DNA of 59,658 nucleotides, taken from positions 1 to 59,658 of IMG/VR virus record IMGVR_UViG_3300027851_000001. One strand, given 5' to 3'. A program made the position numbers and the translations under genes. Positions 2,777-50,179 of this stretch are shown here, one piece after another. Position 1 is the first letter of the stretch. The number at the start of each line of letters is the position of its first letter. The notes under the pieces are model-generated. The model searched no databases. It was not told the DNA's origin and saw only the letters and a list, made by a program, of their open reading frames with translations. The DNA comes from a virus. Lineage: Duplodnaviria; Caudoviricetes.

Positions 2777-2928
2777 TCCGCTTCTACTTCCGCAAGGGCC
2801 GGTGGCGCGTGACGTCCACCACCAAGCAGGTGCCGGCCACGGAGTGGTGGAACGCCATCAACGCCGTGAAGTGCATGAACCATAGGCTGCGTACAGCGCG
2901 GCAGAACACCGCCGATGACCGGCTTTAG
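2773..2928 (+). CDS. Small hypothetical protein (51 aa) ending inside the attC-like site
   Basis: AGGAG RBS and ATGA overlap with the upstream gene; MIRFYFRKGRW...QNTADDRL. Confidence 0.55.
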   Translation: MIRFYFRKGRWRVTSTTKQVPATEWWNAINAVKCMNHRLRTARQNTADDRL

Positions 2929-2951
2929 TCCGGTCGATTTAAGAGTTGGGC
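2901..2951 (-). other. attC-like recombination site 1A
   Basis: Minus strand GCCCAAC-TCTTA-AAT(C)GACCGG(A)CTAAAG-CCGGTCATC-GGCGGT-GTTCTGC: R'', 5-nt spacer, L'' with extrahelical C, hairpin, L', R'. Confidence 0.75.
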
Positions 2952-2971
2952 TGATGCCCGGAAAGGAACCC

Positions 2972-3163
2972 ATGGGAAAAGTGCAAAGCGCTGTATGGCG
3001 CGATCTTTTCGACCCCGGATGGCGCGAGCGGGAGGCCGCCCTTGTTGCGAAGTTTTTGGCGCTCATACCAGCGCGCTGCGGCTGCCAACTTGGTACGTGC
3101 CAGAGCAAGCCGGACGGTTGCCGCATGCGCCAGGAAATCAAGCCGGGCAGCGGTGCGCAGTAG
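2972..3163 (+). CDS. Cassette gene, hypothetical protein (63 aa, Cys-rich C-terminus)
   Basis: AAAGGA RBS; the stop lies 2 nt before GCCCAAC of the next site. Confidence 0.6.
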   Translation: MGKVQSAVWRDLFDPGWREREAALVAKFLALIPARCGCQLGTCQSKPDGCRMRQEIKPGSGAQ

Positions 3164-3165
3164 TT

Positions 3166-3217
3166 GCCCAACACCACCAATGAGCCGCCTGCGGTCGGCT
3201 CGATTACAGAGTTGGGC
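3166..3217 (-). other. attC-like recombination site 1B
   Basis: Minus strand GCCCAAC-TCTGT-AAT(C)GAGCCG(A)CCGCAGG-CGGCTCATT-GGTGGT-GTTGGGC, with perfectly complementary R''/R'. Confidence 0.8.
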
Positions 3218-3236
3218 TGATGCCCTGGAGAACACG

Positions 3237-3536
3237 ATGGAAACACCAAAACCAATGGCTGGAACTTGGACGCTTACCGCACCAGATGGGCGAGAGTGGA
3301 AAGCAGAAACACCGCTTCGCTGTTGTGGGCTTGAGCAAAGAGAGCGAGTCCCCGCAGATGTTGCGCTAGCAAGAATTCTTGCTGCTGCAAAACTTGGTGC
3401 CGACGACAGAGATAGCGAACTATTGCAAGCCGCTCTCTATGCACTGGAATACCACACCGAACAAACGCGCCCGATCCAGTCAACCAATGATGCTATTGCC
3501 GCACTGCGCAAAAGGCTGCTGCCCAACACCAATTAG
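3237..3536 (+). CDS. Cassette gene, hypothetical protein (99 aa)
   Basis: GGAG RBS; visibly more AT-rich than core genes; ends ...LLPNTN inside the attI-like site. Confidence 0.7.
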   Translation: METPKPMAGTWTLTAPDGREWKAETPLRCCGLEQRERVPADVALARILAAAKLGADDRDSELLQAALYALEYHTEQTRPIQSTNDAIAALRKRLLPNTN

Positions 3537-3560
3537 GCGACGACGACCGTCGCGTAACAC
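3521..3560 (-). other. attI-like site of array 1
   Basis: Minus strand GTGTTACGCGACGGTCGTCGTCGCCTAATTGGT-GTTGGGC; 3525-3560 is 27/36 identical to 47809-47844; resembles the class 1 attI1 DR1-L-R layout. Confidence 0.6.
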
Positions 3561-3586
3561 CGGCACAAGCATTTACGCCCGACGGG

Positions 3587-3838
3587 CTATTTCATCCCCG
3601 CCGACTTCGTCCTAGCGAACGACCGGTTCTGCGACGCGGGCACAGCCCGTAGGTTCCCACCCCCGTTGCCGCCGCCCTTGACGATCGGCTTGCGGTGATC
3701 GACGTCGAGCCCGTCTCCTTTGCGGACGAGGCCCTTCTTCTCCATGGTGGCGCGCGCAGCGTTGCGGGCTGCACGATTCTTGATCTGCTCCGGCTTGCCA
3801 CCATAGTTCCGGTACTCATCTGCGTAATTTCTGGCCAT
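3587..3838 (-). CDS. Small HNH endonuclease
   Basis: DVDHRKPIVKGGGNGGGNLRAVPASQNR, an HNH beta-beta-alpha motif. Confidence 0.8.
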   Translation of the reverse strand: MARNYADEYRNYGGKPEQIKNRAARNAARATMEKKGLVRKGDGLDVDHRKPIVKGGGNGGGNLRAVPASQNRSFARTKSAGMK

Positions 3839-3839
3839 C

Positions 3840-6800
3840 TTACTCTCCACGTAGTTCACTGATTTCTTCCTGCATCCGCTTCAGCAGCTCGGTCTGCCGT
3901 TCGGCAAAACGCGCCCAATCCGGGCGCTCGTAGCGGGCCTCGGCGCGGCGCAGCCGGCCAATCTCCTGCTTGTACTCCGACATGATAGCCTTGGCCGCGC
4001 GGCTCTGGGCCACCACGGCTTGGTCCTCGTTGAACGAGTACACCTTCATGCCGAACCACTTGGCGACCTGCACCGCCTCGAAGCCCTCGGGCTTGTCCTT
4101 GCGCCCCTTTAGGATGTCGTCCACGCGTTCACCACGCATGAAGTCCACCACGGGGGGCGGCGCCACCTGGGCGGCGATCTCCCGGCCGCGCGTCAGGAAC
4201 TTCTCCCACATGGTGTCCGTGGGTGGCGACAGCGGCTTGGCGAAGTACGGGTCAACGCCGGCCACCGCGGTGATGATGGTCGACACCAGGGGGCCGGTGG
4301 GGGTGATGGCAGACGGGAACCACTCCTGCCCCATGAACCCGTTGGGCTGGCCGCGCGCCACCGAGGTCCACGGCAGGTAGTCGCCCAGGCGGTAGTACAC
4401 GGGGGACTTGTCGTCACCGAGGAACGGCAGGCGGATGTGCACGTAGGGACCCATGCCGAACATGCGGTCGCGGATGTACTCGGGCCCAGCCTTGCGCAGC
4501 CGCTCGTCCTCCTCATCCCCGCCAGCCATCTCCTGAAACGCATGTTCTAGGATGGCGAACGCCAGCATGATGTTGGCGATCTTCCACGGCTGGTGCACTG
4601 CGATCTTTCCCATGACCGGGATGATGGCGTAGGTCCACGAGATGAAGGGCAGCACCGTCTGGCGCGCCATGCGCACCGCCTTGGAGTCGATGTCGTAGTC
4701 GAGGAAGGCCCAGCGCGCGAAGTCGCCAGCAGCCTGCAGATCCTCGGCCGTCAGCTTGCCGTCGTGCAGGGCGGAGAGGTCGGCCGCGTGCTTCAGGAAG
4801 GCGGCCATGCGGAACACGTTGTCCTCGGCGGAGTACGCCTCGGTGATGATTTCATCCACCCGGCCACCGACGCCCTTGGCTTTGTCGACATGCTTCTGCA
4901 GTGCCTCGGACTTGGCCTTCTCCATTTTGGTCAGCGCCCCCAGGCGGCCCATGATCGTCGTGTCGCCCTCCAGCGACTCGCGCATGGCGTTGTACAGCGA
5001 CTGCTTGACCTCGGCCGAGGAGAAGTCGCCGATCATGGCGTTGGAGTTGATGAAGGCCAGCACCAGCTGGCGCTCGGCCGGCTTCATGGAGTTCGGACGG
5101 AGTTCGTACTGCGCCATAAGGCGCGCGGCTTCCTTCACGGTCGCCAGCGGAATGTCGTGCATCGTCGCCAGGGTGAAGTTGGTCGCCACGTTGGTCAGGT
5201 GGGTGCCGGGGTTGTAGACTGTCTTGGCTTTCTTGAACCAGCGCATGCCGGTGTTCAGCGAACGGAACGAGGTCGCCGGGCGGCGGTCGCTCATGTCCTG
5301 CATCGCCATCCACACGCCACTCCTGATCAGCTTGCCCTTGAGCGTGCCGTATGCGTCAGAGTCCGGCAGCTGCACCCACAGGTGCGGGGAGCGGTACAGG
5401 TGCTGGGTCTGCGTGCTGCGCGCGGCGTCGCTGCCGGCCTTGAGCACCAGCGCCGGGTCGATCTTGATCTTCAGCGAGTCCTCGGCATGGGCGATGCTGT
5501 CGAACGCCACGGCGTTGTCAGGGTGCCCGTCGCTGTGCCCGTATGTGGCCAGTGAGTCCGAGAACTGCTTGGACGCGAAGTTGTTAGCGAGCGCTGACAT
5601 CGTGTTGCGCAGCGCGTTGGACAGCTTCTCCGCCTGCTGGGCCTGCACCGCCTGCTTCACCGTCATCGACGCGCGGAAGGTGTGCTTGCCGTTGGCGAAG
5701 CTGGTGTGGAACCACACGTATTCCTGATCCACCATGTGGCCAGCGGGGGCTCCGACGCGGTCGAACTTTTCCGCGGCCATGAACCCATCGTGCGCCTTGT
5801 TGCCAGCGGCGTCCATGTGGAACACCTCGAAGTACTTGCCGTCCAGCACCGGGTCCCCCTGGGCGTCCAGCATCATCCACGAGGTCTCCAGATTTTCCTC
5901 GACCTGCTTTTTCTCGCCCAGCATGCTGTTGAGCTTGCGCAGGCCGAAGGTCTGGCCCGCCACCTGTTCCTCGGTGTTGGCGAACAGCATGGTCTCGGAG
6001 AACTTGCCGCTGGAGAAGAACCGCGACGCCTTCTCGTTGCCGAGCCGGGACACGTAGAAGTCGCGCCAGCGCACCACCTCGTCGGCCAGTTCGGCGGTAG
6101 CCTTGTCATCGCCCAGCGCCTGCTTGTCGCCGTCGAGGTAGTCGAAGATCGCCTGGATCTTGGCAGGGGACTGGCGCTGCACGAACGTGGCCAAGCGCTC
6201 GGTCAGCTTGTACCCTGCCTGCTTGTCGTCCTTGTACTGCTCGAACGCGGCGCGGGAGTCCACCGGCACGGCGAAGCGCGTGTTGACGTAGGTGAGCCAG
6301 CGGGCGATGCCGGGGAAGTCGTCGCGCACCTTCTCGGCCAGCTTGTCGGACTGCTCCAGCACTTTGTTGGCGCCGTACTTCCACCCCAGCGCGTCGAAGA
6401 TGAACTTCGTGCTGAGGAACGAGGGCAGGATTTTCTTGTTGTAGCGCGACACGTCGGTGTCGGAGGGCAGTTGCGCACCGGGGCGGGCCAGCAGTTCGGG
6501 AATGCTGCTCGTCGGGTCCATGCCGGACATGACCTCGGCCTTGAGGATGTTGCCCTTCCTTTTCCCTGGGGCGTCGATGCCGGGGGCAGCGGCCATCTCC
6601 AGCAGCGCCACGGTGCCGTCGAGCACATCGTTGGCCACGGTGTTGGAGACGCCGAGGAACTTCTGCACCAGTCGCGTGATGCGCAGCCAGATAGCGGACA
6701 ACCCGGACATGCCGGTGTCCTTCTCCTGCACGGTCTCCATGCCCTTGAGCGCCTTGCGGAACTCATACAGCGTGCTGCCGTAGGAGATCAGTTCGAGCAC

Positions 6801-43736: not shown

Positions 43737-44159
43737 ATGGCAACGACCTATGACATGGATAAGCAGGTGACGTGCACCACCTGTCGAGGCGAGGGCACCA
43801 TCGACGAAACACTCGGTGGTGAACCGTTCAGCAATCGCTACGCGAAGTGTCCCGACTGCGATGGCCGTGGGCACGGCTTCGCCACTTCCCCCAACCGCGT
43901 GCAGCGCGTCGGCCCGCTGGAGGTGCTGCGCGAGGAGCTGGACGTGTACACCACATGGTCGGCTCGCCTTGCCAAGGACAAGCACGCCTACTACACATGG
44001 GTGCTGAGCCACAACCGGCGCGACGGCTACCTATTCGCCGGGTACCGGGACCGCAACAGGACCAATGGGAACATGCTCGTGGAGCCCGGTGAAGCCGAGA
44101 ACGTAGCCATGGCGTTGCTGGCACTGAACACTGATGCCCTCGTCGAACGCCTTCGCTAA
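43737..44159 (+). CDS. Protein with a DnaJ-type CxxCxGxG zinc finger
   Basis: CTTCRGEG and CPDCDGRG; the stop is a palindrome TAA. Confidence 0.6.
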   Translation: MATTYDMDKQVTCTTCRGEGTIDETLGGEPFSNRYAKCPDCDGRGHGFATSPNRVQRVGPLEVLREELDVYTTWSARLAKDKHAYYTWVLSHNRRDGYLFAGYRDRNRTNGNMLVEPGEAENVAMALLALNTDALVERLR

Positions 44160-44218
44160 TCCCACGGGATTAGATATACTCACCACTGTTACTTGTTCAC
44201 TTACTTCTGGAGACCTTC

Positions 44219-45373
44219 ATGTCCTCAAACCTCGACGACCGCATCGCGCTCGCCTACTCCAAAATGGGCCTGCGTGAGCCCTTCATCGCCGCTGTCATGG
44301 CCCGCGTCAAGCGCGAAGTCAGCGACACTGTGCCCACCGCCGGCACCAACGGATCGTGGGTTCGCTTCAACCCAACGTTTTGTTCCGCGCTCACCGACGA
44401 GCAGCTGTTCGGCGTCGCACTGCACGAGTCGCTGCACATCGTGTTCATGCACTCGTGGCGCCGTGAGGGCCGCGACCCCTCGCTGTGGAACGTGGCCAAC
44501 GATGCGCTGATCAACCAGTACATCCGCGAGCGCAACTACCAGCTGCCGGACGGCGTCGTGAACATCGGCTGGGTGACGGCCACCATGGATTCGGAGGCTG
44601 TGTACGAACGGCTGCGGCAAGAGCAGAAGCAACAGCAGGCAGGCGGCGGTGCCAAGGGCCAAGGGTCCGGCAAGGGCACACCCGATTTCGGCGCCGGTGG
44701 TTTCGACGGCACGGGTGATCTGGAGGACGCCGTGGACGAGGCTGGCCGCACAGACATGGAAGCCAGCATCCAGGCTGCTGCGTCGATGGCCAAGGCGTGT
44801 GGCCAGGGCAGCTCCATTGTCGACCGCGTGCTGGGCAGCGTCGCCAAGTCCGACGCGCCGTGGTACGAAGTCACCCGCAACATGCTGACCGAGAAGTCGG
44901 CCGCTGATTACACCTACCTGCGCCCCTCGCGCCGCCACATCGCCGCCGGCCTGTATCTGCCCTCGCTGCACAGCGAGGACCTGGGCGGGCTGATCATCGG
45001 CTTCGACACTTCGGGCTCCATGGGCCCGAAGGAGTGCGATCAGGTGGCGGCCGAGCTGCGCGCCATCGTCGACGACGTCAACCCCGCGTTTGTCGAGGTG
45101 GTGTACTGCGATTACGACGTCACCGCTGTGGAGCGTTTCGAGCGCGACGAGCCGCTGGACCTGCACCCCAAGGGTGGTGGCGGCACCCGATTCCAGCCCG
45201 TGTTCGAGCACGCTGCGCGGAGCGAAGACAACTACTGCGGCATGATCTTCTTCACCGACCTCGAAGGCAATCTCTCCGAGTGCGAGGAGCCCTCGTACCC
45301 CGTCATCTGGGCCGACATCGGCCGTTCACACCCCGAGGTGCCCTTCGGGCTTCGGGTGCAAGTTAATTTTTAA
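44219..45373 (+). CDS. Metallopeptidase-like (DUF2201) plus VWA domain protein
   Basis: LHESLHIV HExxH; DTSGS MIDAS, GGGGT, FFTDLEG. Confidence 0.85.
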   Translation: MSSNLDDRIALAYSKMGLREPFIAAVMARVKREVSDTVPTAGTNGSWVRFNPTFCSALTDEQLFGVALHESLHIVFMHSWRREGRDPSLWNVANDALINQYIRERNYQLPDGVVNIGWVTATMDSEAVYERLRQEQKQQQAGGGAKGQGSGKGTPDFGAGGFDGTGDLEDAVDEAGRTDMEASIQAAASMAKACGQGSSIVDRVLGSVAKSDAPWYEVTRNMLTEKSAADYTYLRPSRRHIAAGLYLPSLHSEDLGGLIIGFDTSGSMGPKECDQVAAELRAIVDDVNPAFVEVVYCDYDVTAVERFERDEPLDLHPKGGGGTRFQPVFEHAARSEDNYCGMIFFTDLEGNLSECEEPSYPVIWADIGRSHPEVPFGLRVQVNF

Positions 45374-45382
45374 GGGAACACC

Positions 45383-45700
45383 ATGAGCACCGACAACGAA
45401 ATTCTGTCCCGCCTGCGAGACCTTCAGGTGGCCACCCGCGACCTGCAGACCAAGGCCACCCGCGCCGAGACCAAACTGGTGCGGGGCTTCGAGGAACTGG
45501 GCGTCAACATCAGCACGGGCGACGACTGGCTGACCGTCGACGACATCGACCGCACGGTTACTGTCACGACTCTGGGGCGCAGCACCCTCGTAATGCTGAC
45601 CGACATGGCCCGCCGCGGCGCGACGCAGGTGGGCAAGGAATACACGATCCTGCACCGCGGCCGCGTGGCGGGGTCCGTGGTGTTCAACCCGACACGGTAA
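45383..45700 (+). CDS. Hypothetical protein
   Basis: AAGGG RBS; core-like codon usage. Confidence 0.65.
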   Translation: MSTDNEILSRLRDLQVATRDLQTKATRAETKLVRGFEELGVNISTGDDWLTVDDIDRTVTVTTLGRSTLVMLTDMARRGATQVGKEYTILHRGRVAGSVVFNPTR

Positions 45701-45710
45701 GGAGAACGAT

Positions 45711-46064
45711 ATGAAGCACGAACAACCCGAGCCGCAGCCCCACCTGTGGGACGGCACCCCGATGGCCGCGATGCCCTACGTCATCAGCAAGGAGAACTCA
45801 GTGCCAACCAACCACGACGAAACCCTGTGTGGTGAGCGAGAGCTTGCGCTGGTGGCGAAAGTTGAGGCGCAGGCTCGGCGTATTGCTGCGATGGAGAAAG
45901 ATGCTGCTCGGTATTTGTGGCTGCGCAATAACTGGTTCACCATGGGAGCGGCTTACCCGGATGAAAAGGTTAAGTTCTACACCAATTGCACTCGTTGGTC
46001 AGATCAACCGGAAACGAACATTGACGAGGCCGTTGACGCCGAACTTTTGAAGGATCAGAAATGA
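45711..46064 (+). CDS. Hypothetical protein (mosaic, DAARYxWLR motif)
   Basis: AAGGAG RBS; KDAARYLWLRN is a common phage accessory motif. Confidence 0.6.
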   Translation: MKHEQPEPQPHLWDGTPMAAMPYVISKENSVPTNHDETLCGERELALVAKVEAQARRIAAMEKDAARYLWLRNNWFTMGAAYPDEKVKFYTNCTRWSDQPETNIDEAVDAELLKDQK

Positions 46065-46348
46065 CTGAAAAACTGAGGGCGATTGCCATGTTGGACGAGA
46101 TAGACCGGCTGAAGGCGGAGAACGCGGGGCTTCTGGCCATGAAAAGCGATCTGGCCTGCCTCGTTCAACGGCTGGCACGCAAGCACCACGACACCGCACT
46201 GGCGACCAAGGCGATGCAGTACGTGGTTAGAAAAGACCTGATCGGGGACTACATGCGAAACACGGAATTCGGCGTTACCGATGGCGAACTGCAACGACTC
46301 GTGGACACCATCAAGGGCCACGCAGCAAAGGGAGAAAGCCATGAGTGA
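46061..46348 (+). CDS. Hypothetical protein
   Basis: ATGA overlap. Confidence 0.55.
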   Translation: MTEKLRAIAMLDEIDRLKAENAGLLAMKSDLACLVQRLARKHHDTALATKAMQYVVRKDLIGDYMRNTEFGVTDGELQRLVDTIKGHAAKGESHE

Positions 46349-46655
46349 AGCACTGAGACTGGCGGAATACTGTGAAGGGCTTGCATCCGAGATTGACCAC
46401 TCACATTTCACGCACGACCTGCTTGCGTCAGCAGAAGCGCTTCGCCGCCTCGCCAGCGTGGAAGACGAGCTCCACCAGGCGCGGGAAGAGCTTGCAGCGC
46501 TGAGGGCCTCGCTGGGTGAGCCTGTGCCTGAAGTTGTCATCGCCCACTACGGTGGGCAAACCCGAGGTATTGGTTACAGCAAGCTGCAGGCTTTGGTAGA
46601 CCCTGAAAAACTACCTATAGGCGCGAAGCTATACGCCATCAAGGACAAATCATGA
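46341..46655 (+). CDS. Hypothetical protein
   Basis: GGAG RBS; 8-nt overlap. Confidence 0.55.
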   Translation: MSEALRLAEYCEGLASEIDHSHFTHDLLASAEALRRLASVEDELHQAREELAALRASLGEPVPEVVIAHYGGQTRGIGYSKLQALVDPEKLPIGAKLYAIKDKS

Positions 46656-46704
46656 GCAACACCACCGATGACCGGCGCTAGTCCGGTCCATGAATGAGTT
46701 GGGC
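46654..46704 (-). other. attC-like recombination site 2A
   Basis: Minus strand GCCCAAC-TCATT-CAT(G)GACCGG(A)CTAGCG-CCGGTCATC-GGTGGT-GTTGCTC. Confidence 0.7.
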
Positions 46705-46725
46705 TTAGGCCCGGAGAGGAACAAC

Positions 46726-47073
46726 ATGACCTTGGAAGAATTCGTCCGATCTGACATGCAGATGCTGCGAAAGCTGGCCGCTCGCGGAGTGGTAGAAAAA
46801 TCGTACCTGGAAGAAACCGCTGACATGCGGTTGCTGGACCTGGCGCAACGCGCAATGCGAGAGAAACTGAGTCTCGCCAGGCGCAAGGGGCGCGGCGGCT
46901 GGTGGAACCAAGCTGAGTGCTCTATCGACCACCTCAAAGCACTGCTGAGCGATCACGTCGAGAAGGGCGACATGCGCGACGTGATGAACCTGGCCGCGAT
47001 GGTGTACCTGCGTGAGGTCGCCGACGAGCAGCCCAACACCACGATGACCACCGCGCCGCGTGCGGTCGATTAA
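46726..47073 (+). CDS. Cassette gene, hypothetical protein
   Basis: GAGGA RBS; reads through the next attC to a TAA; RRKGRGGWW...HVEKGDMRDVMNLAAM. Confidence 0.7.
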   Translation: MTLEEFVRSDMQMLRKLAARGVVEKSYLEETADMRLLDLAQRAMREKLSLARRKGRGGWWNQAECSIDHLKALLSDHVEKGDMRDVMNLAAMVYLREVADEQPNTTMTTAPRAVD

Positions 47074-47083
47074 CCAGTTCGGC
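47031..47083 (-). other. attC-like recombination site 2B
   Basis: Minus strand GCCGAAC-TGGTT-AAT(C)GACC-GCACGCGGCGCGGT-GGTCATC-GTGGT-GTTGGGC. Confidence 0.7.
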
Positions 47084-47104
47084 ACTGCCGACAGAAAGGA
47101 AACC

Positions 47105-47356
47105 ATGAGCCAAACGCTGGAAGAACTGGGAGACGCGATCACAGACGCGCTGGCGACCAACCCCGTGCAAGACGTGCTCGGCGTGCTGTGCGGCGCGCTG
47201 GTCGGGCTGGTGCGCGAATTGACGATTCGGAGCGGCAACGACCCGGATAAAACCATCACGCTTGATGCAGGTCCGGGGCAACGCAAGATCGAGATTCACG
47301 CGCTGCCGAACACCGAAGTTGACCGGGCCAGCGGGTCCGGTCGGACGCAGAGTTAA
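47105..47356 (+). CDS. Cassette gene, hypothetical protein
   Basis: AAAGGA RBS; the stop lies in GTTAAAC of the next site. Confidence 0.65.
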   Translation: MSQTLEELGDAITDALATNPVQDVLGVLCGALVGLVRELTIRSGNDPDKTITLDAGPGQRKIEIHALPNTEVDRASGSGRTQS

Positions 47357-47358
47357 AC
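47305..47358 (-). other. attC-like recombination site 2C
   Basis: Minus strand GTTTAAC-TCTGC-GTC(C)GACCGG(A)CCCGCTGGC-CCGGTCAAC-TTCGGT-GTTCGGC. Confidence 0.75.
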
Positions 47359-47387
47359 AGGAGCCCGAACGGGCAGAAGGAACCGAA

Positions 47388-47810
47388 ATGCAGATGTGGA
47401 TTGACACCGAGTTCAACGAATACAAGGGCGCGCTGATTTCCATGGCGCTGGTGGCAGAAGACGGGCGCGAGTGGTACGGCGTGCGCTTCTGCGATGACCC
47501 CGGCTGGTGGGTTGGCGAGCATGTGATGCCTTTCCTGAACAAAGAGCCGCAGCGCGACGACTATTTGCGCGCGTCCCTGCACGACTTTTTGGAGCAGTTT
47601 GACAGCGTGCAAATCGTGTCGGATTGGCCCGGAGACATCGCGCACTTCTGCAACTTCTTGGAGTACCGGCCAGGGGACCGCATCGGCCCGGACACGATGA
47701 CTTTTGAGGTGCGCCGCGACTTGCCGGACACAGCGAAAACATCGGCGATCCCACACAACGCACTTGAAGACGCCCGGGCGCTGGCGCGCGGTGCATTGGC
47801 TGCTGTTTAA
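47388..47810 (+). CDS. Cassette gene, DEDD 3'-5' exonuclease-like protein
   Basis: WIDTEFNE...SDWPGDI...PHNALEDARAL (DEDDh); the stop is in GTTTAAC. Confidence 0.75.
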   Translation: MQMWIDTEFNEYKGALISMALVAEDGREWYGVRFCDDPGWWVGEHVMPFLNKEPQRDDYLRASLHDFLEQFDSVQIVSDWPGDIAHFCNFLEYRPGDRIGPDTMTFEVRRDLPDTAKTSAIPHNALEDARALARGALAAV

Positions 47811-47844
47811 CACAAATTCGGGAACACCACCCGTCGCATAACAC
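47805..47844 (-). other. attI-like site of array 2
   Basis: Minus strand GTGTTATGCGACGGGTGGTGTTCCCGAATTTGT-GTTAAAC; homologous to 3525-3560. Confidence 0.6.
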
Positions 47845-47911
47845 CGCCACCACCTGACGCAAGCCATTGATCCACAAGGCTTCACCGAATAACAGAACTT
47901 GGAAACACAAC

Positions 47912-48241
47912 ATGAGCAACACAACAATCATCAGAGGACTTGCGGAGCGGATCGAGCGGGAAGCGCCCGCTGTGCCGGAGGTTGAATTTCGAGTCGCGGT
48001 AGCCAACCTGATTACCTCTATAGACGACCACCTACCAGACGAGGCATTTGCAATGATTCCTACAGCCGATTGGAACCGGGTGACCGCCCACCTTGCCGCA
48101 CCCCAGCAGGCACCACAAGCCGCGCCCATTGCGCGACCACTGAGCGATGAGCAGATCAAGCACCTAGAAGTCTGGCCCCTGATGACCATCACAGAAGTCG
48201 TTCGCGTTATCGAGCGTGCCCACGGCATCAAAGGAGATTGA
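47912..48241 (+). CDS. Hypothetical protein
   Basis: RPLSDEQI...VRVIERAHGI, a common phage accessory motif. Confidence 0.6.
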   Translation: MSNTTIIRGLAERIEREAPAVPEVEFRVAVANLITSIDDHLPDEAFAMIPTADWNRVTAHLAAPQQAPQAAPIARPLSDEQIKHLEVWPLMTITEVVRVIERAHGIKGD

Positions 48242-48242
48242 G

Positions 48243-48665
48243 ATGACTCTTACCCCCGGACCCAAAGAGGTTGAGTTCAACGACTGGTATGACACGAAGT
48301 TCAAGCCGGCAATGGAACGAGGGCCGCTGGATAAATATGTCGCCAGACAGGCATGGTTCGCCAGCGCCCGCGCAATCGAAGCCGCAGCCATCGAGAGCTT
48401 CCTGAACGACAGCGGCCAGTACCTGACCAACGACGCGACACGCGAGGCAACCATTGCCGCAGCAACAGCCCCGCTGCTGGCACGCATCGCCGAACTTGAG
48501 CGACAGCTTTCGCAGCCTGTGGGTGAGCCCGTCTACCAATATCAGCGCGCTGATGGCTCTTGGATTGATCAGACTAAAGCCAGTCACGACTACAACGTTA
48601 GCCACGGGCAGGCCACTGTTCGGACGCTCTACACCCACCCAGCACACGGAAAGGATGCGCCATGA
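48243..48665 (+). CDS. Hypothetical protein
   Basis: GGAG RBS; EPVYQYQ...VRTLYTHP motif. Confidence 0.6.
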   Translation: MTLTPGPKEVEFNDWYDTKFKPAMERGPLDKYVARQAWFASARAIEAAAIESFLNDSGQYLTNDATREATIAAATAPLLARIAELERQLSQPVGEPVYQYQRADGSWIDQTKASHDYNVSHGQATVRTLYTHPAHGKDAP

Positions 48666-48759
48666 CCTACCTCGCCTTCGCGTTGGGCCTCACGGCCGGC
48701 GCCTGCCTCGGCGTGGTCGTCGCGGCCATGGCGTTCGTATCCAAGCAGGAAGATGACAA

Positions 48760-49122
48760 ATGACCAAACTCGTACCCAACAGACGTACCATGGTGAAGAT
48801 CAACCGCTTCACACAGGCCAACCTGATCGCCCTCCTTCTGGAGGGCATGTACACCTGCCAGGAACTGGCCGAGGAGACCGGGCTGCACTACGTCACCGTG
48901 CTGGATTACACCCGCGAGCTGCACCGCGCCAAGGCCGCCTTCATCAAGTGCTGGGAGCCCGACAAGCGGGGCCGGTACAACCGCAAGGTGTATCAGGTGG
49001 GCATCGGCAAAGACGCTGTGCCCCCGCGGCGCACCGCCGCCGAGCGGCAGAAGGCGTACAGGGACAAGCTGGCCGAACACAAGAAGCTGACCGCGCTGGG
49101 GGTGACATGCGCTTCCGAGTAG
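48760..49122 (+). CDS. Winged-HTH-like DNA-binding protein
   Basis: TCQELAEETGLHYVTVLDYTRELHR. Confidence 0.6.
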   Translation: MTKLVPNRRTMVKINRFTQANLIALLLEGMYTCQELAEETGLHYVTVLDYTRELHRAKAAFIKCWEPDKRGRYNRKVYQVGIGKDAVPPRRTAAERQKAYRDKLAEHKKLTALGVTCASE

Positions 49123-49526
49123 TCACTGGCAACACCGCCCGCAACCCGGTGGCGAGAGCCATCGCCCGGCAGAAGGTGCACGACATCCTGCTGACAACCA
49201 AGCTGCGGGTGTATGTGCTGGAGGATGGCATGGACGACTCCCGCTTCATGCACGGGGTACTGAAATCTCTAGTCACCGTGGCGAGAGCCATTGAGCTGGG
49301 CCGCCAGCGGGGCTACCACCAGCTGACTCGCGACGAGACCCGGGACTTCAACGTCCTTCGCGGTGGGGTCTCCGCTCTGGAGCAGAACCTCACGTGCTGG
49401 AACAGCGCCAACGCCGTGGCCATCGAGGCTGCGGTGGACGCCTGCGAACGACTGAACAAAATCGCCCGGACCGACTGCATCGCCGATGCGGCCGAGGAGT
49501 TCGGCGTAACGATAACGAATAGGTAG
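49107..49526 (+). CDS. Hypothetical protein
   Basis: GGGGG RBS; overlaps the upstream gene. Confidence 0.55.
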   Translation: MRFRVVTGNTARNPVARAIARQKVHDILLTTKLRVYVLEDGMDDSRFMHGVLKSLVTVARAIELGRQRGYHQLTRDETRDFNVLRGGVSALEQNLTCWNSANAVAIEAAVDACERLNKIARTDCIADAAEEFGVTITNR

Positions 49527-49535
49527 GAGAACAAC

Positions 49536-49940
49536 ATGAGCGAACTCATCAAGTGGGGCGGCGGCCCCTGCCCGTGCGGGAAGGACGACACCGTGGATAT
49601 TGAGTTGCGCGCTGGTATTTTCCAGCGAGGGGTGGCAGGAGAACTCAGCTGGGGGCACCAAGACCGTGGCTCGGACATCGTCGGCTGGCGCATGGTGAAG
49701 GAAGCCAACCACCCGGATCCTCTGCAGGTGCAGGTCGGTGGCGGGCACTACAAGGACATGGCCATCCAGCCCGTGGAGTTCATCCACGCCAACGGCATCG
49801 GGTACTTCGAGGGCAACGTCGTCAAGTACGTCTCCCGCTGGAGAAAGAAAAACGGCGTCGCTGATCTGGAGAAGGCCCGGCACTACATAGACCTGCTGAT
49901 CGAGCTGGAGGGGCGCCGTAATCCCACGGGATTAAAGTGA
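49536..49940 (+). CDS. DUF3310 (T7 gp1.7/SaV-like) protein
   Basis: QVGGGHY...IQPVEFI...YFEGNVVKYVSRWRKKNGVADLEKARHY. Confidence 0.8.
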   Translation: MSELIKWGGGPCPCGKDDTVDIELRAGIFQRGVAGELSWGHQDRGSDIVGWRMVKEANHPDPLQVQVGGGHYKDMAIQPVEFIHANGIGYFEGNVVKYVSRWRKKNGVADLEKARHYIDLLIELEGRRNPTGLK

Positions 49941-50179
49941 CGGCCTTCGCCATGGGCGAGTACCACCCCGAAGTCACCATCGTTGCCTTTTCCCGTGACG
50001 ATCTCTGCGACATCGCAGACCTCGTTGCGGCGGGGCAACCCCTCGACGGTGTGCATTTGCAGCTGCACCTGCGGGGCAGTACACTGATCTTTCCCACGGG
50101 GGTGAGCGAGGCTCAGCTCCGACGACTTGTTGACTATGCTTCCGTGCTGGATTGGTCCGGCATGGAGAGGAGTAATTGA
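49937..50179 (+). CDS. Hypothetical protein
   Basis: GTGA overlap. Confidence 0.45.
   Translation: MTAFAMGEYHPEVTIVAFSRDDLCDIADLVAAGQPLDGVHLQLHLRGSTLIFPTGVSEAQLRRLVDYASVLDWSGMERSN

Follow-up and report, generated by a model that had tools for sequence, protein, structure and literature searches.

A probable integron cassette array with inverted open reading frames in a phage genome, and its relatives beside phage-borne intI genes

Integrons have been viewed as devices of bacteria: their cassettes lack promoters and depend on one located at the integrase end, and the strand selectivity of attC enforces cassette orientation. In T4-type phages, the shuffling of PeSL (promoter-early stem-loop) cassettes has been attributed to homologous recombination, without a dedicated recombinase. 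Integron components are known from phages as well: Qi et al. 2023 (PMC9892861) reports them in 21/10705 phage genomes, 17 CALINs among them, with the CALIN cassettes in typical orientation and IntI1 recombining 5/6 of the phage attC sites tested, and it describes the complete phage integrons as captured bacterial pieces (Vibrio SCI, class 1 in P1 phage, and Shewanella). A first, sequence-only reading of the DNA considered here had proposed an integrase-less, integron-like cassette array in a phage and was not aware of a description of it. That holds in part: integrons and CALINs in phages and the recombination of phage attC by IntI1 were already published in the 2023 paper, and it is the phage-native lineage with inverted ORFs that was not found in the literature searched.

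The stretch of DNA analysed here as a whole (the window, 59658 bp) is a complete genome with direct terminal repeats, and its phage is apparently non-temperate. At 46654-47880, within the replication/early operon, lie three cassettes spaced by attC-type sites of 51, 53, and 54 nt, and the AAC triplets starting at 46658, 47035, 47309, and 47809 bear out the unit lengths of 377, 274, and 500 bp that had been read from the letters alone. A cassette begins with the C of an AAC triplet, stops after the AA of the following one, and has the same layout throughout: an attC core at the promoter-proximal end, a short leader that includes a Shine-Dalgarno sequence, and a single ORF. All ORFs (3/3) are on the plus strand, and each stop codon falls in the following site, as had been noticed before. 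The features of the main array are as follows:

46652-46662, plus strand: first copy of an 11-nt direct repeat
46654-46704, minus strand: attC site 1; the minus strand is the top strand and the plus strand the recombinogenic bottom strand; the left outer box has no partner
46660-47036, minus strand: cassette 1, 377 bp, limited by the crossover points between AA and C and containing attC core 1 and gene 1
46726-47073, plus strand: gene of cassette 1, 115 aa, phrog_8298, unknown function; stop codon within attC site 2
47031-47083, minus strand: attC site 2, 92% identical to a site of viral contig G002, where the flanking genes differ
47037-47310, minus strand: cassette 2, 274 bp
47105-47356, plus strand: gene of cassette 2, 83 aa, phrog_18086, unknown function; stop codon in the outer box of attC site 3
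47305-47358, minus strand: attC site 3; over 48 nt, its core and the first G002 array site are 98% identical
47311-47810, minus strand: cassette 3, 500 bp; an identical copy is in a contig of another study
47388-47810, plus strand: gene of cassette 3, 140 aa, phrog_2259, annotated as RNase H
47805-47856, minus strand: putative attI-like site with AAC repeats at 47809, 47823, and 47840, homologous to the intI-proximal site of viral contigs G003 and G002
47857-47878, plus strand: stub of a deleted intI, approximately its first 22 nt, with the start codon altered
47912-47922, plus strand: second copy of the 11-nt direct repeat, at the start of the next phage gene

The two copies of the direct repeat enclose the whole main array together with the attI-like site and the intI stub. 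By eye, the protein of cassette 3 shows motifs of a DEDD-type exonuclease. A read joint in run X10 skips 46784-46940 (side 32), within gene 1; where runs X2, X4, X7, and X10 leave the window uncovered, they carry no information.

A second array of two cassettes is located at 2901-3575 of the window, and no intI stub was seen at its attI-like terminus (3521-3575). Its features are as follows:

2901-2951, minus strand: attC site A, 85% identical to site 1
2907-3171, minus strand: cassette A, 265 bp, with a gene at 2972-3163 (plus strand)
3166-3217, minus strand: attC site B; a site of viral contig G001 shares 97% identity with it
3172-3526, minus strand: cassette B, 355 bp, with a gene at 3237-3536 (plus strand)
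3521-3575, minus strand: attI-like terminus of the second array

The absence of an integrase, part of the earlier description, is confirmed: a search for PF00589 in the complete genome gave no match at E<=1, hence no tyrosine recombinase was found. A CALIN consists of at least two close attC sites without intI, and the genome has three at 46654-47358 and two at 2901-3217; without a tyrosine recombinase in the genome, the array is therefore a CALIN. A complete integron has intI adjoining the array, which is the case in G003, and the window has the 22-nt stub only. It is very probable that both 46654-47880 and 2901-3575 are true integron cassette arrays that have no integrase and were built with phage-encoded IntI.

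The attC/attI family of the window is also present in other viral contigs. Window positions 47809-47878 align at 80% with the intI-proximal regions of G003 and G002, and the 14- and 17-nt spacing of the three AAC repeats is identical in the window and G003. G003 is a temperate siphophage, a real phage by its tape measure, major head, portal, and terminase, and carries the same attC and attI directly upstream of an intact intI (TIGR02249, 440 bits; cut-off 265), the best solved relative of its product being VchIntIA (E 4.8e-78). In G002, next to the same attC/attI family, intI is truncated and its first ~60 codons are left. Because of the attI-like end with the 22-nt intI start, and because relatives possess intact (G003) or truncated (G002) intI, the window array is best read from these comparisons as a remnant of a phage-borne integron, or an offshoot of one, that lacks the integrase.

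Cassettes appear to be shared across unrelated phages. The region of cassette 3 (47309-47813) recurs with 0 differences over 505 bp in another study, on a 3831-bp contig whose groundwater source is unrelated, and the match breaks at both AAC triplets, with unlike DNA on either side. A G001 cassette and a G002 cassette are 74% identical over 329 bp with unrelated flanks and a left break at AAC. Breakpoints at AAC in related contigs had been named as a check and were found in these two comparisons; the empty site that had been looked for as well was not, as the searches from two array-flanking genes gave three distant loci and 0 loci, respectively, and no empty-site relative. The G003 array contains one cassette; that of L190 contains four, with the same upstream gene on one side and, on the other, an intI of 86% identity. 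IntI relatives are encoded in 51 viral contigs. For the 31 of these 51 that were examined, cassette-type inverted ends flank 66/212 of the genes lying no more than 4 kb upstream of intI, some of the loci being duplicates of one phage, compared with 6/184 genes downstream of intI and 16/511 in unrelated loci; 63 of the 66 bracketed genes point towards intI. Twelve bacterial intI loci with flanks of 1.5 kb, taken as an orientation control, offered too little sequence and too much noise to be of use. The phages among which cassettes would move have G+C contents of 55.6-67.9%.

Other searches for relatives were negative. The five cassette proteins of the window had no tblastn homologue in the other arrays or in G001-G003, tblastx of the arrays against the window gave noise only, and no match to 45300-49200 turned up among 50,697 phage records (blastn). 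A DUF2201 protein led to 33 related loci, with the repeat family in 0/33. A pattern scan of genome contigs gave at least 120 loci, among which those listed included no full site and two partial matches (E 0.004-0.007), a result that says nothing on bacterial genomes.

The proposal that the phage borrows a host IntI is not supported, as it was put, by these comparisons. It would mean that the phage never owned an integrase and routinely uses the IntI of a host chromosomal integron to gain and shuffle cassettes, which is compatible with the window genome lacking a tyrosine recombinase and with the ability of IntI1 to recombine attC sites of virulent phages (PMC9892861). IntI homologues were also found in 134/301 sampled genomes (E<=1e-60) of one candidate host family, although this family rests on one MAG-derived protein name (a Hydrogenophaga-labelled IntI, 86% identity). 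Against it, homologues of the attI-like site and the intI stub that close the array occur in phage contigs, and the closest intI genes (68-100% identity) are in viral contigs, whereas the best bacterial IntI matches in the sampled candidate host family reach just 60%. Since phage-borne intI exists and related phages carry their own, borrowing from the host is not needed, and we consider it unlikely as the origin of the array. It is nevertheless possible that IntI acts on the window array in trans, from the host or a co-resident phage.

The reading of the locus as an integron array built with phage-encoded IntI is further carried by the ends of the cassettes. In both window arrays (3/3 units of the main array and 2/2 of the second), the 7-letter stretch that follows GTT and the one that closes with the next AAC are exactly reverse complementary, and the cassette-end stems reach 7-9 nt. 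Across seven arrays in six viral contigs, the ends are complementary at four variable positions in 23/26 units, at three of the four in two, and fail in one. Shuffled pairings gave a mean of 4.3 and a maximum of 14, and 23 was reached in 0/200000 permutations, the site positions having been picked by eye with guidance from nhmmer matches and a perfect-pair scan, mostly with one candidate AAC per interval scanned. The two boxes of the same array site are perfectly complementary in just 1/26. There are 12 distinct types of unit ends, and pairing is perfect in 15/17 non-consensus units. Counting every GTTNNNN..NNNNAAC pair spaced by 100-1600 nt yields 3.3 per kb for arrays versus 1.3 per kb elsewhere, a weak statistic in place of which the permutation test of adjacent ends was used. 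The end pattern first noticed in the three main units thus extends over the family.

Folding agrees with this pairing. At least six R-box pairs form in 25/26 of the folded circle junctions, versus 4/26 for the sites as arranged in the array, with mean fold energies of -15.0 and -11.6 kcal/mol, respectively. In the minimum-energy folds of the circle junctions, an internal loop separates an outer 7-bp stem from an inner hairpin and corresponds to the unpaired spacer, and the spacers in the window sites are of 5 nt and 5-6 nt. As arranged in the array, the hairpins are no more stable than shuffles (z -1.59 to +0.60, eight folds), and they are absent from the six inverted repeats of an inverted-repeat scan; both results count against the observation.

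The triplets and bulged bases of the sites also match attC. AAC and GTT triplets are present in 5/5 window attC sites and both termini, and AAC in 31/33 of the sites and termini compared, two L190 sites having AGC. In 14/14 short-type sites, a single bulged base (G in 12, C in one, T in one) lies on the 3' arm of the plus strand, opposite AAC, with a T six positions before it, and pair 19-37 of the L stem covaries (CG in eight, GC in five, AU in one of 14 sites). This geometry agrees with the attC bottom strand as described in PMC5027507, in which the extrahelical bases are on the arm opposite AAC, the first usually G and the last T, six pairs apart, and it bears out the earlier assignment of the attC top strand to the minus strand of the window. 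PMC5027507 gives attC lengths of 57-70 bp for short sites of mobile integrons and up to ~133 bp for VCR; the window sites (51-54 nt) are below the quoted 57-70 bp and the family ranges over 49-101 nt, lengths which depend on author-set box limits. The variable box letters are frequently off the RRRY/RYYY consensus.

The hairpins might alternatively be regulatory intergenic elements (RNase III-type processing sites, attenuators, or leader hairpins), with the shuffling due to homologous recombination between conserved repeats. The sites do lie between co-transcribed genes and are each followed by a conserved leader with a Shine-Dalgarno sequence, leader and hairpin move together in three comparisons, upstream ORFs extend into the sites, and the sites are much better conserved between phages (92-98%) than the genes. 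This explanation leaves unaccounted for the pairing of unit ends rather than of the boxes of one site, the invariant AAC and GTT triplets, the bulge geometry, and the bona fide intI adjoining the sites, and no Rfam family matched (0 matches for 44000-50000 at E<=10, Rfam holding no attC family), so that it appears very improbable as an account of the arrays, though a secondary regulatory role of the sites is possible. Chance hairpins in G+C-rich intergenic DNA, for which the non-significant fold z-scores and the background frequency of random end pairs might speak, can be practically dismissed, being refuted by the five full site copies that nhmmer found in the window (E 1e-12 to 1e-20), by the permutation test and the contrast in folding, and by the presence of the family in four viral contigs besides the window. 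Hammerhead and other ribozymes were dropped for want of an Rfam match, and none of N4-type hairpin promoters, nut-type sites, Xer/dif-like modules, and IS200/IS605-type hairpins accounts for the cassette-end rule plus an adjoining intI.

The original proposal of an integron-type cassette array is thus upheld by the cassette-end rule, the folds of the circle junctions, and the occurrence of the same sites beside intI in G003. It is the gene-sense strand on which AAC...GTT is read and the far arm has the bulged base, which means that the platform is canonical and all ORFs are inverted, the latter as had been claimed. The attC bottom strand is the one that encodes intI, with attI at the 5' end of that gene; in G003, L189, and L190, the array is upstream of the intI start, and these loci are not reverse integrons. 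When a cassette circularises, its two ends would pair into the R stem of a complete attC, with R stem, unpaired spacer, bulged L stem, and loop. The arrays would have been built by attC x attI recombination with an integron integrase from phages of the same gene pool, and the main array terminates in what appears to be the attI of such a platform, followed by the 22-nt stub. Since every cassette ORF is on the attC bottom strand, transcription would run from the phage operon through the array towards attI and intI, which is also how the earlier reading had expected the genes to be read. Any change of the window array would now require IntI in trans, from a host integron or from a phage that co-infects or is resident, or else homologous exchange between conserved sites.

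More broadly, we favour, with moderate confidence, an integron lineage native to phages of freshwater, groundwater, and wastewater bacteria, with a canonical platform and all ORFs on the attC bottom strand, in which the operon reads through the array into intI, and in which intI-bearing temperate phages and integrase-less phages share one pool of small accessory genes (among them methyltransferases, nucleases, and zinc-ribbon proteins). The machinery of integrons appears to serve phages with a reversed cassette pool: attC is upstream of the gene, expression starts at the end of the array away from intI, and a newly gained cassette would become the last gene of the operon, beside intI. If true, part of the mosaicism of small accessory phage genes would have a site-specific mechanism, and how cassettes of either ORF polarity arise would become a testable question, with natural sets of attC, attI, and IntI on hand for tests of strand selectivity. 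The array reading also explains the two islands of orphan genes and odd repeats in the window.

Among the known systems, the PeSL cassettes of T4-type phages likewise comprise small accessory genes flanked by a conserved intergenic hairpin that is common to phages with differing genes between, but here relatives have a dedicated integron integrase and attI, and the cassette ends follow the integron crossover rule. The reverse integrons (the inverted integron-integrase group of Treponema denticola) are unlike these arrays, which are located upstream of the intI start and have intI opposite to the attC top strand, the arrangement of ordinary integrons. The phages of PMC9892861 share with the window attC clusters without intI, in virulent and temperate phages, and a cargo of methyltransferase and unknown genes; in contrast to them, several uncultured phages here have the attC/attI family in common, intI ends the phage operon, the ORFs are without exception inverted relative to attC, and an intI stub is retained in the window. 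With the canonical platform (class 1; Vibrio cholerae VchIntIA/VCR) the phage arrays share an intI coding strand that is the attC bottom strand, attI at the 5' end of intI, the kept AAC and GTT, the unpaired spacer, the extrahelical bases opposite AAC, and the mutual pairing of cassette ends. They differ from it in short sites (51-60 nt) with box letters beyond RRRY, in the ~15 nt from the last attI repeat to the intI start of G003, which leave no space for a separate promoter, and in ORFs placed on the attC bottom strand, with attC upstream of the gene and transcription towards intI.

The window is a complete viral record of 59,658 bp with direct terminal repeats, coding for a large terminase, a portal/adaptor, an internal virion protein, a DNA polymerase, helicases and a primase-helicase. 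A six-frame search of the whole genome for the tyrosine recombinase family PF00589 returned nothing at E ≤ 1, as the sequence-only reading had maintained. The main array, 46654-47880, sits within the replication/early operon and holds three small genes, none of which had a Pfam match:

46726-47073, plus strand, gene of cassette 1 (PHROG 8298)
47105-47356, plus strand, gene of cassette 2 (PHROG 18086)
47388-47810, plus strand, gene of cassette 3 (PHROG 2259, family label RNase H)

DEDD-type 3'-5' exonuclease motifs could be recognized by eye in the cassette 3 protein (Pfam: none at E ≤ 0.1). The genes are set apart by sites of 51, 53 and 54 nt, each starting with a 7-mer that ends in AAC and closing with a 7-mer that begins with GTT. 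The AAC triplets lie at 46658, 47035, 47309 and 47809, giving unit lengths of 377, 274 and 500 bp, the same values as were originally proposed.

The hairpins by themselves are unimpressive: eight single-strand DNA folds gave z-scores of -1.59 to +0.60 against shuffles, the repeat-finding scan did not list them, and Rfam returned no match to the sites. Despite these weak scores, the sites are one sequence family, and an nhmmer profile built from five window sites regained all five (E 1e-12 to 1e-20) but gave no match when run on 33 loci from distantly related phages. Many short wastewater-metagenome contigs match the attC cores (attC, the cassette recombination site) alone at 47037-47100 and 47305-47355, with summed depths of 186 and 454, as is expected of a repeat common to many cassettes.

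When the main-array region was compared with the rest of the genome, a second copy appeared at 2905-2969 (85% identical), around which a second array of two cassettes, 265 and 355 bp, could be read from the sequence (2901-3575):

2901-2951, minus strand, attC site
3166-3217, minus strand, attC site
3521-3575, minus strand, attI-like terminus

This array is placed at the far end of the plus-strand operon, adjoining convergent late genes, and no remnant of intI was found at its terminus. A small minus-strand gene abutting the terminus (3587-3859, phrog_4590, unknown function) carries an HNH-like motif by eye. Where an upstream ORF enters a site, Asn-Thr is read in frame from AAC and the next triplet, which was seen by eye in five of seven window sites or termini (2905, 46658, 47035, 47309 and 3525) and also at sites of contig G002.

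A site-derived pattern matched 23 viral stretches, two of which (L056 and L058) contained arrays, and their whole contigs were fetched:

G001, 33,852 bp, G+C 55.6%
G002, 33,624 bp, G+C 65.8%

Likeness between the window and these contigs is confined to the sites (92-98% identity), the intervening genes being unlike, and 20 letters of the window array terminus recur in G002 and in a third viral contig, G003 (41,215 bp). G003 is a genuine siphophage: it encodes a tape measure, a major head protein, a portal, a terminase, a primase and its own serine integrase, and a tyrosine recombinase of 346 aa starts about 50 nt past its array terminus. This recombinase matches NCBIfam TIGR02249 'integron integrase' with 440 bits against a cut-off of 265, and among relatives of solved structure the Vibrio cholerae integron integrase comes closest (E 4.8e-78). 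Another viral locus, L189, encodes an IntI 86% identical to it, and the L189 integron is flanked by a ParB-like gene on one side and by phage tyrosine integrase, endolysin and tail-fibre genes on the other. In G002, intI is reduced to its first ~60 codons, after which the frame is lost, and the window aligns with G002 and G003 across the terminus and ~22 nt of intI, with an altered start codon, before unrelated DNA follows. Three AAC repeats at the terminus have equal spacing (14 and 17 nt) in the window and G003, and a separate public-run contig carries the attI-like site and then an intact intI start. Since the window terminus aligns with the intI-proximal region of G003 and G002, it occupies the attI position.

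The intI-bearing phages also have a separate lysogeny integrase, of serine type in G003 (89-1834) and of tyrosine type, immediately following intI, in L189 (8048-9094) and in a further locus, L199 (5600-6778), so that IntI is not their sole recombinase. About 4 kb upstream of the L189 integron, in the same operon, a gene (1371-2885) encodes a 504-aa protein matching the PHROG 'reverse transcriptase' (E 5.6e-109); reverse transcription has been proposed as a route of cassette genesis.

The rule on cassette ends was tested on 26 units from seven arrays, listed by coordinates (the window's two, G001, G002, G003, L189 and L190, the last another viral locus), with box positions set by eye and partly via a perfect-pair scan, most of the intervals inspected offering a single candidate AAC. 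The four variable letters after GTT exactly complement those before the next AAC in 23 of the 26 units, two of the others pairing in three of four positions and one failing, whereas perfect pairing between the two boxes of an array site occurs in only 1/26, which bears out the end complementarity first noticed in the main array. There are 12 different box types, and 15 of the 17 units without the commonest type are perfect; with partners shuffled, perfect pairs averaged 4.3 and peaked at 14, and 23 was reached in 0 of 200,000 trials. To mimic excised circles, the distal box of each cassette was linked to the core of its own site; the outer stem then appeared in the minimum-energy fold of 25/26 junctions versus 4/26 sites as they stand in the array (mean fold energies -15.0 versus -11.6 kcal/mol). 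End pairing and this folding contrast form the pattern that would be expected of strand exchange inside the conserved triplet. Two L190 sites (5787 and 6954, one of them attI-proximal) have AGC in place of the AAC invariant elsewhere, and the sole failing unit is the L190 cassette preceding the first AGC site; either immobilisation of the cassettes or misassembly may account for this.

Cassette content also differs among relatives. G003 and L190 have the upstream gene in common and intI genes 86% identical, with one versus four cassettes, and the cassette that closes the L190 array closes the G002 array as well. G001 and G002 hold a common 329-bp cassette (74% identity) between unrelated flanks, its identity beginning at AAC. 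When public-run contigs were compared with window 46300-48300, 47309-47813 was found with no differences in a 3,831-bp groundwater contig of a different study, with unlike DNA on both sides; the breaks fall at the two AAC triplets bounding cassette 3. This is the most telling of the mobility results, and it favours the sequence-only reading, which had proposed such a comparison. An empty site, lacking the array block, was not found among relatives sought with the two genes beside the array. The array, attI-like site and stub lie together between two copies of an 11-nt direct repeat, at 46652-46662 and 47912-47922, and the first copy opens a 9-codon mini-ORF (46652-46681) whose first five residues are those of the gene at 47912. 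The repeat looks like the scar of an insertion or recombination event that brought in the array block, with the start of the following phage gene as its probable point of entry.

Polarity was assessed on 14 short-type sites, whose 7-bp inner stem shows covariation (one pair is CG in 8, GC in 5 and AU in 1). A single base is bulged on the plus-strand 3' arm (G in 12 sites, C and T in one each), with a T six positions ahead of it in 14/14. The attC bottom strand carries AAC in R', with the extrahelical bases on the opposite arm, the first usually G and the last T, six pairs apart, according to Nivina et al. 2016 (PMC5027507). By this geometry, the bottom strand of attC is the window plus strand and its top strand the minus strand, in line with the initial assignment. 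The hairpin core is linked to the downstream leader and box, not to the upstream gene, in three comparisons, which agrees with this polarity, and the start codon of the cassette common to G001 and G002 lies inside the core.

Relatives of IntI were found in 51 IMG/VR contigs (best-segment identities 24-100%, with several of the matches partial), of which 31 were analysed with a crude gene caller, several loci being copies of one phage type. Cassette-type inverted 7-mers, bulge polarity aside, bracket 66 of the 212 genes in the 4 kb preceding intI, compared with controls of 6/184 downstream genes and 16/511 genes in unrelated loci, and 63 of the 66 are directed at intI. Among named proteins, the nearest is the 'integron integrase' from a MAG labelled Hydrogenophaga (86% identity), and IntI homologues occurred in 134/301 genomes of the sampled bacterial family, none above 60% identity.

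The observation and its reading as an integrase-less integron array were right, with site anatomy, end rule, attI-like terminus, stub, intact intI in relatives and an identical cassette elsewhere all in evidence; borrowing of a host IntI is unnecessary, given the intact intI of phage relatives and the stub in the window. The arrays were probably assembled by a phage-encoded IntI via attC x attI insertion, with the cassettes probably expressed through transcription that continues from the phage operon. The gap between the last repeat and the intI start codon in G003 is only ~15 nt, so intI is probably the final gene of a shared transcript there. In the window phage, the arrays are probably frozen by now unless IntI acts in trans. 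More broadly, the finding points to a possible integron lineage native to phages, with inverted cassettes.

Integron components were reported in 21 of 10,705 phage genomes, 17 being CALINs (attC clusters without integrase), and IntI1 recombined five of six phage attC sites, according to Qi et al. 2023 (PMC9892861), so that integrase-less attC clusters in phages were already known. The novelty once suggested for the array thus holds only in part: full-text literature searches found no account of phage integrons in which all cassettes are inverted, and the 2023 study describes its complete integrons as captured bacterial ones and its cassettes as typically oriented. G003 has the ordinary intI/array geometry of the canonical integron, its intI being coded on the strand equivalent to window plus with the 5' end toward the array. 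Unlike in ordinary integrons, all cassette ORFs here lie on the attC bottom strand, the inverted polarity already read in the main array, and are directed at attI and intI. The 'reverse integrons' of Treponema have intI upstream of and co-oriented with the cassettes, a geometry that differs from the one described here.
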